Shown here: positions 1 through 2,389 of the stretch, piece after piece
Layout: each line of letters starts with the position of its first letter
Numbering within the stretch: position 1 is the first letter of the stretch
Source: Naegleria gruberi
Taxonomy: Eukaryota
DNA: 2,389 nucleotides
Assembly: GCA_000004985.1 (NCBI GenBank)
Contig: GG739233.1
Reading direction: 5' to 3' (one strand)
Translations under genes and position numbers: made by a program
The notes under the pieces: model-generated
Told to the model about the DNA's origin: nothing
Seen by the model: the letters and a program-made list of their open reading frames with translations, nothing else
The model's database searches: none

Positions 1-283
1 GGTTTAAAAACATAAATTTAGCAAAATTATTACTAATCATTTCTTTAATTAACTCATCATAATTATTAATAGATTTAATAGGAATATTATTTGATAATTT
101 AATAATCTTTTTAGAATGTGGTTTAAAATGATCATAGGGTCTAACTTTATAACTATCTGGTGTTCCGTTTTTACAAACAATACAAATTTCATTTGATGAC
201 TCCTTCTTATTCATTGAATCTTTTAATAAAGTTACTAGTGTTTCCTCCTGTTTTTGTTTTTTGCGTTTGGGTTGTTTAAGCAT
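1..283 (-). CDS. Partial CDS. The 5' end is complete and the ORF continues beyond window position 1. Hypothetical basic protein with a putative C2H2/BED-like zinc-finger motif. Hand translation: MLKQPKRKKQKQEETLVTLLKDSMNKKESSNEICIVCKNGTPDSYKVRPYDHFKPHSKKIIKLSNNIPIKSINNYDELIKEMISNNFAKFMFLN...
   Basis: The ATG is the reverse complement of 281-283 and is preceded by an A6 run (caaaaaaATG). There are 94 stop-free codons in sequence that is more than 75% AT; the chance expectation for that is roughly 1e-4. All three plus-strand frames have stops within the first 60 nt. Codon usage is AAA/AAT/TTA-rich, like the neighbouring gene. There is an in-frame TAA at 308-310 upstream. The ORF is absent from the supplied track only because it has no stop inside the window. 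The motif C-x2-C-x14-H-x3-H (ICIVCKNGTPDSYKVRPYDHFKPH) follows a KQPKRKKQKQ basic stretch. Confidence 0.55.
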   Translation of the reverse strand, partial: MLKQPKRKKQKQEETLVTLLKDSMNKKESSNEICIVCKNGTPDSYKVRPYDHFKPHSKKIIKLSNNIPIKSINNYDELIKEMISNNFAKFMFLN

Positions 284-332
284 TTTTTTGACCCTGCAAT
301 AAATTTTTTATTTTTATTGCAGGGTCAAAAAA
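284..332. repeat. Perfect inverted repeat (palindrome). The arms are 284-303 TTTTTTGACCCTGCAATAAA and 313-332 TTTATTGCAGGGTCAAAAAA, with a 9-nt spacer TTTTTTATT. The GC-containing core stem is GACCCTGCAAT.
   Basis: Direct reverse-complement comparison of the two arms gives 20/20 matches. The element is flanked by a T7 run and an A6 run. AATAAA is present on the plus strand at 298-303 and on the minus strand at 318-313 and 312-307. Confidence 0.9.
307..318 (-). promoter_or_regulatory. Candidate polyadenylation signal(s), AATAAAAATAAA, for the RWP-RK gene.
   Basis: On the minus strand two overlapping AATAAA motifs lie about 123-135 nt downstream of the TAA stop at 441-443. This is canonical eukaryotic poly(A) signal spacing. 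There is no transcript evidence. Confidence 0.35.
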
Positions 333-440: not shown

Positions 441-1553
441 TTAAAATGTTTCTTTATAGGTTCCATCATACCACAACTTCAAAGAAATCATTCCGAATGA
501 AACTGTAACCAGTTGAGTGATTGAATTATGAGAAACACTTAATCTATAAACCATGTTTCGAACATGATCCCATCCTTCCATGAATTCCAATTGTCTATTG
601 CAATGTTCATTAAACTCATTCAACTCCTCTCCTAAAAATGAATAATCATTGTCTTCGATAACTGGAAAACTGAAATCATTTGATGATGTACTACTTGTTG
701 TTGATGTAGAATCGTTGAATATTGTTATTCCTTTCCCATCTTCAAATTCCGATTCATAATTATTATTATCTAAACTATATTGATTCAAAGTCCATCGTCC
801 ATTTCCGAATGTTGGTAAATATGGAAATTCAAACACATATCTTGAAACATTTCCTTTTGTAAAACAGCCAATAGAATCGTATCCAAGAACCTTTCTACTT
901 CTAATTGTACAATATTCTCCATACATATCAAAGTAACTGGTAAATACATTTCTGGTACACTTTGAAACTGGCATACAGAATACAACTTTCTTGAATCCAT
1001 TTGCTACTCTACCAATCATACGATCACAAATATCCTTTTCCAATCTTTTCATTTCCAAAAAATGTAAGAAATCTTGTAGTTCATATTTGTTAAAAGTGAA
1101 AATCTTATCATCATCTGTATAACCGGAATAAATTGATTCATGGTTAACATTATGTTGATTATTTTCAAGTGGAGAAGGAAGATATAATATTTTAGGTTCA
1201 ATAGAAGTGAATGGATTATTGCCCTTTTTGATTTGTTGTTTGTATATGAGAGATTTTTTAAAGATTGGAAAGTCATTTTCATCTCTAGGAAATTCTTCTT
1301 CTTCCTTCACTATGATGTTGTTGTTGTTGTTATTGGTTAGCATTTGTTGTCTAGCCTTTTGTGTTGGCCATCTAACCATAGAAAGCTCCTCTCTATGCTT
1401 CTTGAATAAAGAGCGAAGTTTGAAAGAAGATGTACCAAGTACTTTAGTAGCTTGCTCTTGGCTCAAGTGAAGAACGGACTTCAGTTCATCCAATGTTAAT
1501 TGCTTCTTCTTTGGTGAAGTTCCATCCAGTGGATTGTAGTGAATGAAGGACAT
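441..1553 (-). CDS. RWP-RK domain-containing putative transcription factor, 370 aa. The N-terminal RWP-RK domain is followed by an Asn6 linker, an acidic stretch and an unassigned C-terminal region of about 250 aa with scattered Cys/His.
   Basis: This is the ORF from the supplied track. I verified the ATG (reverse complement of 1551-1553) and the TAA (reverse complement of 441-443). There is an in-frame upstream stop at 1578-1580. Residues about 18-68, LTLDELKSVLHLSQEQATKVLGTSSFKLRSLFKKHREELSMVRWPTQKARQQ, match the RWP-RK consensus: the LTLxxL start, the hydrophobic/basic helix pattern and the invariant RWP, here RWPTQK where the canonical form is RWPxRK. The ORF is long and uninterrupted in AT-rich DNA. 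Confidence 0.85.
   Translation of the reverse strand: MSFIHYNPLDGTSPKKKQLTLDELKSVLHLSQEQATKVLGTSSFKLRSLFKKHREELSMVRWPTQKARQQMLTNNNNNNIIVKEEEEFPRDENDFPIFKKSLIYKQQIKKGNNPFTSIEPKILYLPSPLENNQHNVNHESIYSGYTDDDKIFTFNKYELQDFLHFLEMKRLEKDICDRMIGRVANGFKKVVFCMPVSKCTRNVFTSYFDMYGEYCTIRSRKVLGYDSIGCFTKGNVSRYVFEFPYLPTFGNGRWTLNQYSLDNNNYESEFEDGKGITIFNDSTSTTSSTSSNDFSFPVIEDNDYSFLGEELNEFNEHCNRQLEFMEGWDHVRNMVYRLSVSHNSITQLVTVSFGMISLKLWYDGTYKETF
1317..1334 (-). repeat. (AAC)5AAT trinucleotide microsatellite encoding an Asn6 homopolymer.
   Basis: The plus strand reads gttgttgttgttgttatt. It is in frame within the CDS and yields NNNNNN. This is typical of dictyostelid coding repeats. Confidence 0.8.
1350..1502 (-). 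other. Segment encoding the RWP-RK DNA-binding domain. R61-W62-P63 are encoded at 1373-1365.
   Basis: Nucleotide-to-codon mapping checked by hand. AGA-TGG-CCA on the minus strand corresponds to plus-strand tct/cca/tgg at 1365-1373. Confidence 0.75.
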
Positions 1554-1635
1554 TGGTGGGGATGTTGTGTGCTGTTGTTAATAGGTACGGTATTGTTTTG
1601 AACATTTTTTTTACCATGTGTTTTTTGTATGGATG

Positions 1636-1643
1636 TATTTATA
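1636..1643 (-). promoter_or_regulatory. TATA-box-like TATAAATA for the RWP-RK gene.
   Basis: The minus strand reads TATAAATA, the reverse complement of tatttata. It lies about 85-90 nt upstream of ATG 1553. The spacing is compatible with a TATA box, a TSS about 30 nt downstream and a short 5'UTR. The motif is common by chance in AT-rich DNA. Confidence 0.3.
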
Positions 1644-1763
1644 GAACAATTTTGACAACGCCAGCGAAAGTAAACACAGAGAAGCCACACATTTTTAACA
1701 CGTTGTTTACCTTGTTATCTTCCTCTGTAAATAATTTTCCATAGAGGTTTGGAATATTCTTCA

Positions 1764-1777
1764 AAAAAGTACTTTTT
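1764..1777. repeat. Perfect 14-bp palindrome AAAAAGTACTTTTT in the divergent promoter.
   Basis: The sequence is self-reverse-complementary and centred on GTAC. Confidence 0.6.
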
Positions 1778-1903
1778 CTAATCTAGTGCACTCTTTACTT
1801 TCAAAAATGAATTTAAAAGAACATTTGATTTTAAGTAATAGTAATAATTAAATATTAAATAGTCATTTGTAATTTATTATTTAAAAAAATAATTTTAAAA
1901 AAA

Positions 1904-2389
1904 ATGGACTCACACAATATCAGAGTTTTTCAATCACAAGATATTTTGTGCCCACACGATCTCGGACAGCCCTACTGCAGTGCTGCGAGTGATAGTTTAT
2001 TCTGGGTCGCATACAATGGAATTGTCAAAGGCTACTCGACACAAACAACACAGAAAGAGTTTCATTGCCTTTATGAATTTCAGCCTTTGTGGAATCAAGT
2101 GGATGCTATTCATTATTTGCCAGATATTAGGAGAGTAATTACGGTGGAAAGGAGAGTTTTATATTCATCATCTTCATCATCATTGAATGGAGGAGCAACA
2201 ATAACATCCTCTCCGATGAATAATAGTTTAAATGTTTTGGCAACATCATCAAATTTGACGGATTTTAAATCAAATCTCACGAGTGTTAATAATAATAACA
2301 GTCAGGGAACAAATGGTGGAGTGAGTGTGGAGCAATGTTGTAGAGTTTATCATTTTGATTATGATAAGAAGGAGAGAAAGACAATAATT
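1904..2389 (+). CDS. Partial CDS, open to the window end (162 codons, 5' end complete). Hypothetical protein. Hand translation: MDSHNIRVFQSQDILCPHDLGQPYCSAASDSLFWVAYNGIVKGYSTQTTQKEFHCLYEFQPLWNQVDAIHYLPDIRRVITVERRVLYSSSSSSLNGGATITSSPMNNSLNVLATSSNLTDFKSNLTSVNNNNSQGTNGGVSVEQCCRVYHFDYDKKERKTII...
   Basis: The ATG at 1904 follows an A7 run. There is an in-frame TAA upstream at 1856-1858. I checked codon by codon and found no stop in 486 nt. The other two plus-strand frames contain stops in this interval. The N-terminal roughly 80 codons are markedly GC-richer than the surroundings (for example ccacacgatctcggacagccctactgcagtgctgcgag), consistent with constrained coding sequence. Ser6 is encoded by (TCA/TCT) and Asn4 by (AAT/AAC), both typical of the genome idiom. 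The ORF is missing from the supplied track because there is no stop in the window. Confidence 0.6.
   Translation, partial: MDSHNIRVFQSQDILCPHDLGQPYCSAASDSLFWVAYNGIVKGYSTQTTQKEFHCLYEFQPLWNQVDAIHYLPDIRRVITVERRVLYSSSSSSLNGGATITSSPMNNSLNVLATSSNLTDFKSNLTSVNNNNSQGTNGGVSVEQCCRVYHFDYDKKERKTII
2165..2182 (+). repeat. TCA/TCT trinucleotide run encoding Ser6.
   Basis: The sequence is tcatcatcttcatcatca, in frame. Confidence 0.7.

Follow-up and report, generated by a model that had tools for sequence, protein, structure and literature searches.

A putative Naegleria gruberi transcription regulator with an N-terminal RWP-RK-type domain and a lineage-restricted C-terminal module

A gene on the minus strand of a 2,389-bp stretch of Naegleria gruberi DNA (contig GG739233.1; here called the window), which makes up a whole scaffold of the assembly, encodes a 370-residue protein, NAEGRDRAFT_54907. 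We consider it reasonably probable that this protein is a transcription regulator of the Naegleria lineage that joins an N-terminal RWP-RK-type domain to a lineage-restricted regulatory module at the C terminus. In plants and algae, RWP-RK factors govern responses to nitrogen as well as sexual or gametic differentiation. Residues 18 to 68 would form a basic three-helix domain that is homologous to those of the Naegleria RWP-RK expansion and most likely binds DNA, and the protein would function in the nucleus. Residues ~91 to 258 and 305 to 365 are predicted to form an α+β module that combines a long basic helix with an antiparallel sheet of five strands and is broken by an acidic, disordered Ser/Thr loop. 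This module is most likely regulatory or partner binding, acting through self-association, a protein partner, or a small ligand; its analogues in plant NLPs would be the PB1 and GAF-like regions on either side of the RWP-RK domain. The acidic disordered segments at residues 69 to 90 and 259 to 304 (isoelectric points [pI] of 4.1 to 4.5) are candidate activation or spacer regions.

An earlier reading of the letters alone (the sequence-only reading) had named the same two parts, and the strings that it quoted are all present: LTLDELKSVL...VRWPTQK (residues 19 to 66), a run of six Asn residues (74 to 79), KEEEEFPRDENDFPIF (83 to 98), the DICDRMIGRVANGFKK... stretch, and EHCNRQLEFMEGWDHVRNMVYRLSVSH. 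It took the organism for an amoebozoan, which was mistaken: N. gruberi belongs to Heterolobosea (Discoba), and remarks on Dictyostelium and the macrocyst do not apply to it.

The N-terminal RWP-RK domain

The Pfam profile PF02042 matches residues 18 to 68 of the protein (E = 2e-5, 24.8 bits, profile positions 1 to 47), where the sequence-only reading had placed an RWP-RK domain. The 51 residues of the domain span 47 profile positions, a net insertion of about 4 residues ahead of RWP, and the motif reads RWPTQK; both features had been read correctly from the letters. The nine relatives that carry the N-terminal region all match PF02042 independently (15.9 to 28.5 bits), and a hand-built consensus of the clade scores 35.4 bits (E = 1e-8), above the Pfam gathering cutoff of 29.3 bits. 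When the N-terminal alignment of the clade was compared by hhalign with 11 N. fowleri domains listed under PF02042 by Herman et al. 2021, the two were matched with 99.3% probability (E = 1.5e-20) over 51 columns. In addition, phmmer ties the query directly to P0014, a genuine triple RWP-RK protein whose own RWP-RK score is 66.4 bits.

AlphaFold predicts helices at residues 21 to 26, 32 to 39, and 43 to 52 with predicted local distance difference test (pLDDT) scores of ~80. The domain is compact, helical, and basic (pI 10.3, with 10 Lys and Arg among 51 residues), in keeping with the helix-turn-helix-like domain of the RWP-RK family, and 13 of its positions are invariant across six sequences. 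The PF02042 matches of the relatives, the clade consensus, the link to P0014, the hhalign result, and the basic three-helix prediction together establish family-level homology to RWP-RK, despite a subthreshold single sequence and the missing RK.

P0014 itself, a 246-residue protein from a Logan assembly, consists of three tandem RWP-RK repeats, one of which joins the 4-residue insertion typical of Naegleria with a fully basic RWPRRRR tail.

Ahead of the domain stands a short motif (F-[HI]-x-Y-[ND]-P). Among the six sequences that reach this end, P8 never varies, and F3 and Y6 are conserved as well. The motif is predicted to be disordered (pLDDT ~37) and may be a short linear interaction motif. 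Disorder is also predicted behind the domain, with pLDDT below 50 for residues 62 to 86.

Variation of the domain within Naegleria

Among the transcription factor families of Naegleria, RWP-RK ranks third in size: 39 genes are counted in N. gruberi and 26 to 27 in N. fowleri (PMC8296547, Table S3). Our motif survey covered 11 N. fowleri 986 domains with a visible motif. The canonical motif is found only in g150 (RWPYRR) and g4799 (RWPYRK), and the other nine domains read KWPSY, KWPQY, QWPKD, RWPQF, RWPGQ, KWPYP, RWPYQ, RWPAV, and KWPYV; the full RWPxRK motif therefore does not define the family in Naegleria. A VLHLSQ core and the same 4-residue insertion occur in 5 of the 11 domains, and the domain of g3092 lies at residues 11 to 60. 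Judging from these sequences, a degenerate RK, a 4-residue insertion, and an N-terminal position are typical of RWP-RK genes in Naegleria. Thus, the N-terminal architecture described in the sequence-only reading is real, and its description as unusual does not hold.

The clade has marks of its own, namely, KLR[ST]xF in place of TLKRRF and FHxYNP ahead of the domain. No N. fowleri entry with this combined signature was found among the entries listed by Herman et al. The domain string of the query is not in the supplement to that study (PMC8296547), which gives counts only, and no gene sheet, for N. gruberi.

Several points weigh against a DNA-binding regulator of the kind proposed here. As a single sequence, the query falls short of the PF02042 gathering cutoff. 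The canonical RWPxRK motif is absent, only RW is invariant within the clade, and the second half of the motif, QK in the query, is not conserved (RWPKQ, RWKVN, RWPMN, RWPTK, and RWKCI in other members). Because KLR[ST]xF replaces the TLKRRF that is nearly invariant in Naegleria RWP-RK domains, the DNA-binding properties of the clade may differ or may have been lost. The model of the whole protein is of moderate confidence (mean pLDDT 65; predicted template modeling score 0.53), and nothing points to what the C-terminal module binds. Finally, the literature searched held no experimental data for any Naegleria RWP-RK protein and named none of the gene identifiers.

Pressed to its limit, the sequence divergence would mean that the domain no longer binds DNA at all and that the protein serves as an adaptor or competes with other RWP-RK factors, which we regard as quite improbable. 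The basic RK of the motif is gone, the KRR of the TLKRRF helix is reduced in the clade to a single R, and every member of the clade is under the Pfam threshold. Yet the domain is still as strongly basic and as strongly conserved as described above, and most Naegleria RWP-RK domains lack RK even though 26 to 39 copies have been kept per genome.

The C-terminal module

Beyond the linker, conservation resumes in five blocks: FPxFD..LY..KR..P...P.IQFLP; MKxLE...RLxGRVANGFKK.V..MPITxC; RKLLGY; FEYPYLPxF..HWTxNEYS; and GWEHxRNxVYRLT..HNxIT..VTVSF. The first half of the module opens with a long basic helix (MKxLE...RLxGRVANGFKK) and ends in FE[YF]PYLPxF..W..N.YS, and the β-hairpin of the second half bears GW[ED]HxRNxVY[RK]L[ST]xxHNxIT..VTxSF. 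Invariant residues of the module are K169, R178, R182, G186, K189, Y225, P244, and P247. The insert between the halves (residues 259 to 304) is variable; it is longer in the query and corresponds to gaps in the alignment of the relatives.

The core of the module is confidently predicted by AlphaFold (pLDDT 84 to 92) from only ~10 distinct sequences. The predicted elements are helices at residues 156 to 183, 201 to 214, and 305 to 325 and strands at 189 to 198, 216 to 225, 231 to 242, 331 to 343, and 348 to 360. A second model, built for residues 88 to 370, has the same topology.

The ~280 C-terminal residues, with a conserved domain of ~200 residues, match no known family or solved structure, which bears out what the sequence-only reading had said of this region. 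Pfam gave no match to the C-terminal region of the query at E ≤ 10 and none to 15 family members at E ≤ 0.1. Searches of PDB sequences returned only noise (E > 0.5) for the single sequence and no matches at E ≤ 10 for the family profile. Foldseek found nothing in PDB at E ≤ 1e-3, its top matches being glutamate dehydrogenase noise, and a fold comparison with the trimmed model gave best scores of 5.5 for an SZT2 fragment and of 5.2 and 5.0 for the RnlA N-repeated domain. We reject a PB1 or GAF C terminus, as neither was found by Pfam or by fold search. The significance of the PF02042 match and the absence of PB1, GAF, or any other known domain from the C-terminal region were the two points on which the sequence-only reading had staked its claim, and neither went against it.

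Lineage-specific C-terminal domains are common on protist transcription factors, and the sensor or dimerization role suggested for this one by the sequence-only reading is a reasonable, if putative, assignment. More specific readings of the module can be weighed against the same data. The closest known domains considered for it are the helix-grip ligand-binding domains of the SRPBCC/START/Bet v 1 superfamily (β-α-α-β6-α) and, more broadly, two-layer α+β folds of the TBP-like kind. One reading takes the module for a sensor of small molecules or lipids whose pocket would be helix-grip-like, as in START, Bet v 1, and PYR/PYL proteins, which would make the protein a one-component, ligand-regulated transcription factor; we consider this unlikely. 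Its fuller form is distinctly unlikely: here the C-terminal 280 residues would represent a domain family not described before and found only in Naegleria-like heteroloboseans, with a helix-grip-like fold that takes a small-molecule or lipid ligand and so gates an RWP-RK factor. Such a ligand-gated factor, if real, would be a protist parallel to the nitrate-sensing NLP7. It is likewise rather improbable that the module is a TBP-like two-layer α+β nucleic acid-binding domain, so that two modules of the protein would contact DNA or RNA, a reading to which the basic first part of the core (pI 9.2) and the invariant basic residues lend some weight.

The sequence-only reading had also raised possible metal binding by Cys and His residues. 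The query has six Cys and nine His residues, of which only C199, H330, and H342 are kept in the closer relatives. These three are replaced by V, Y, and Y in the most divergent member (P0013), and C176, C193, C215, C230, and C318 are all variable; there is thus no conserved four-ligand Cys/His set, and no zinc finger or other metal-binding family was matched in Pfam. We therefore reject a zinc-binding module and regard a Cys/His metal-binding sensor of any kind as very improbable. A regulatory or partner-binding module attached to an RWP-RK-type domain remains our preferred description of the protein.

Distribution and conservation of the architecture

When 1.84 billion cluster representatives were scanned exhaustively with HMMER, only 13 proteins reached E ≤ 1e-3. 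Outside the N. gruberi cluster, all members of this set come from short environmental contigs, and no named homologue from N. fowleri or another cultured species was found in the scan. Whether run with the full protein, the family profile, or the N-terminal profile, word-indexed searches yielded hardly anything outside the N. gruberi cluster. In a scan of metagenome contigs, the C-terminal profile gave 554 pattern matches, of which none was confirmed.

Both parts of the protein are conserved, as is their order, with RWP-RK followed by the module in at least five lineages. These are represented by the query, by two full-length relatives (P0004 and P0005), by P0012 with P0006/P0021, fragments that overlap, come from separate contigs, and are assumed here to belong to one gene, and by P0015 with P0007. 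The last two are encoded on the same strand of a single contig of 1,806 bp, where they are parted only by a one-base change of frame within the linker; this change is suggestive of a sequencing error or of a pseudogene.

That contig, JAJNPV010000005.1 (L001/L003 in our set; 36% G+C; genes at 324 to 704 and 643 to 1380), is deposited as "MAG: Ohtaekwangia sp. isolate MAG_016" (MAG, metagenome-assembled genome), that is, in a bacterial bin, yet its gene is of eukaryotic type. It is almost certainly a misbinned protist contig.

P0013 is a divergent copy of the module (23 to 30% identity) with a low-complexity N terminus and no recognizable RWP-RK domain, suggesting that the module may also exist independently of RWP-RK. 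Its gene lies at 144 to 953 of a contig with 23% G+C (L002; JGI 3300038658, Ga0399987_097390), with only 143 bp upstream.

Gene, copies, and neighboring features

The positions of the gene and of its parts are collected in Table 1. The open reading frame (ORF) runs from an ATG at 1553 to 1551 to a TAA at 443 to 441. Its product is identical to the deposited N. gruberi model (EFC35445.1, XP_002668189.1, D2W657) and 99% identical to P0001. A run of 370 open codons has a chance probability of ~7e-14 at the 31% G+C of the window, and the ORF is more than four times as long as any other there, the next longest having 87 residues. Because homologues of ~40% identity align over the full length of the protein, this is a conserved coding gene, and the length statistic together with these homologues rules out a chance ORF.

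Table 1. Features of the RWP-RK gene and its upstream region in the window
Feature	Residues	Window positions	Strand	Remarks
Complete single-exon coding sequence	1-370	441..1553	minus	370 amino acids plus TAA; N. gruberi NAEGRDRAFT_54907 (D2W657)
Short N-terminal motif	3-8	1530..1547	minus	F-[HI]-x-Y-[ND]-P; six N-terminal sequences
Divergent RWP-RK domain	18-68	1350..1502	minus	PF02042; three predicted helices; motif RWPTQK
Disordered linker	69-90	1284..1349	minus	Asn6 run and acidic EEEE patch; pI 4.5
Conserved pre-core	91-155	1089..1283	minus	FPxF[DK]..L[YF]...K[KR]...P....P.I.[FY][LI]P; pLDDT 57-77, moderate confidence
Module, first half	156-258	780..1088	minus	Predicted helix, strand, helix, two long strands; pI 9.2
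Disordered acidic Ser/Thr-rich insert	259-304	642..779	minus	pI 4.1; pLDDT 24-32
Module, second half	305-370	444..641	minus	Predicted helix 305-325 and long β-hairpin; pLDDT 82-92 for 331-360
Intergenic region, 350 bp		1554..1903		Between the RWP-RK gene and the divergent gene starting at 1904 (plus)

The N. gruberi assembly contains four near-identical models of this gene (~99% identity) in three sequence versions, spread over three or more scaffolds (695 kb, 312 kb, and 2.4 kb). The copies differ by T36A, Y214H, and K273E, plus G233R in P0003, and the Asn run (window 1317 to 1334) has six residues in the query and seven in P0003. The simplest explanation for the 2.4-kb scaffold is that alleles were left uncollapsed, since a tiny scaffold that repeats part of a large one has this appearance; recent duplicates are the alternative. 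Four such similar models on several scaffolds might also be expected if the gene belonged to a repeated or mobile element, which we judge extremely improbable: no transposase, integrase, or terminal repeats surround the gene in the window, two ordinary genes flank it there, and the small scaffold that duplicates part of a large one resembles uncollapsed alleles.

Upstream of the gene, the intergenic region presumably holds its promoter and 5′ untranslated region (UTR). A 43-codon ORF at 1486 to 1617 on the minus strand starts 64 nucleotides (nt) upstream of the main ATG, which it overlaps in another frame; given a transcript that begins that far upstream, it could act as an upstream ORF. The N termini of the homologues favor the ATG at 1553 as the true start.

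On the other side of the gene, a perfect 20-nt inverted repeat occupies window positions 284 to 332 (arms at 284 to 303 and 313 to 332, with a 9-nt loop). It lies 109 nt downstream of the RWP-RK stop codon and adjoins the ATG (283 to 281) of the next minus-strand gene. As minus-strand RNA, it has a folding energy of -30.8 kcal/mol (z = -9.7), and none of 200 shuffled sequences did as well. The repeat could be a 3′-end or terminator signal or a translational hairpin in a 5′ UTR. Rfam matched no RNA family in the window, this repeat included.

The two flanking genes, at 2 to 283 (minus) and 1904 to 2389 (plus), both run off the ends of the scaffold. The product of one begins MLKQPKRKKQKQEE...CIVCKNG..., and that of the other begins MDSHNIRVFQSQDILCPHDLGQPYC.... 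Neither partial gene has a Pfam match below E = 0.04, and neither partial sequence was found in the protein collection.

Significance

The protein itself was already deposited, and a near-identical copy carries a precomputed PF02042 label. As a lineage-specific architectural variant of a known transcription factor family, the gene is of modest interest. What interest remains lies in the C-terminal module, which is conserved, foldable, unassigned, and restricted to Naegleria-like organisms and which would be new to the databases as a domain family. One way to learn which signals reach the Naegleria RWP-RK factors is through a clade that carries such a partner domain. In N. fowleri, one RWP-RK gene shows increased expression in highly pathogenic amoebae passaged through mice, and this gene has been suggested as a drug target since the family is lacking in humans (PMC8296547). 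For the clade described here, nothing in our results points to a specific biological process.

Comparison with known RWP-RK systems

The Naegleria subtype VLHLSQ...ELKxELGM-[KRQ]WP, represented in N. fowleri 986 by g10375, g10377, g11326, g1758, and g2471 (PMC8296547), has a homologous domain. It shares with the query the core, the length of 51 residues with a 4-residue insertion, and the loss of RK after WP. In contrast to that subtype, the query clade has KLR[ST]xF, a domain at the extreme N terminus behind FHxYNP, and an orphan C-terminal module.

Plant NLP/NIN proteins, in which RWP-RK is accompanied by a C-terminal PB1 domain and an N-terminal GAF-like region, likewise combine a DNA-binding domain with a separate regulatory or oligomerization module. 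Neither of these flanking regions was found in the query by Pfam or fold search, and the query differs in having RWP-RK first, that is, in the reverse order, in reading RWPTQK rather than RWPxRK, and in its 4-residue insertion. The minimal RKD/MID proteins (plant RKDs and the MID proteins of Chlamydomonas and Volvox) are also small, with RWP-RK as the sole recognizable known domain. Their domain is central or C terminal with nothing large after it, whereas that of the query is N terminal and is followed by a conserved module of ~280 residues.
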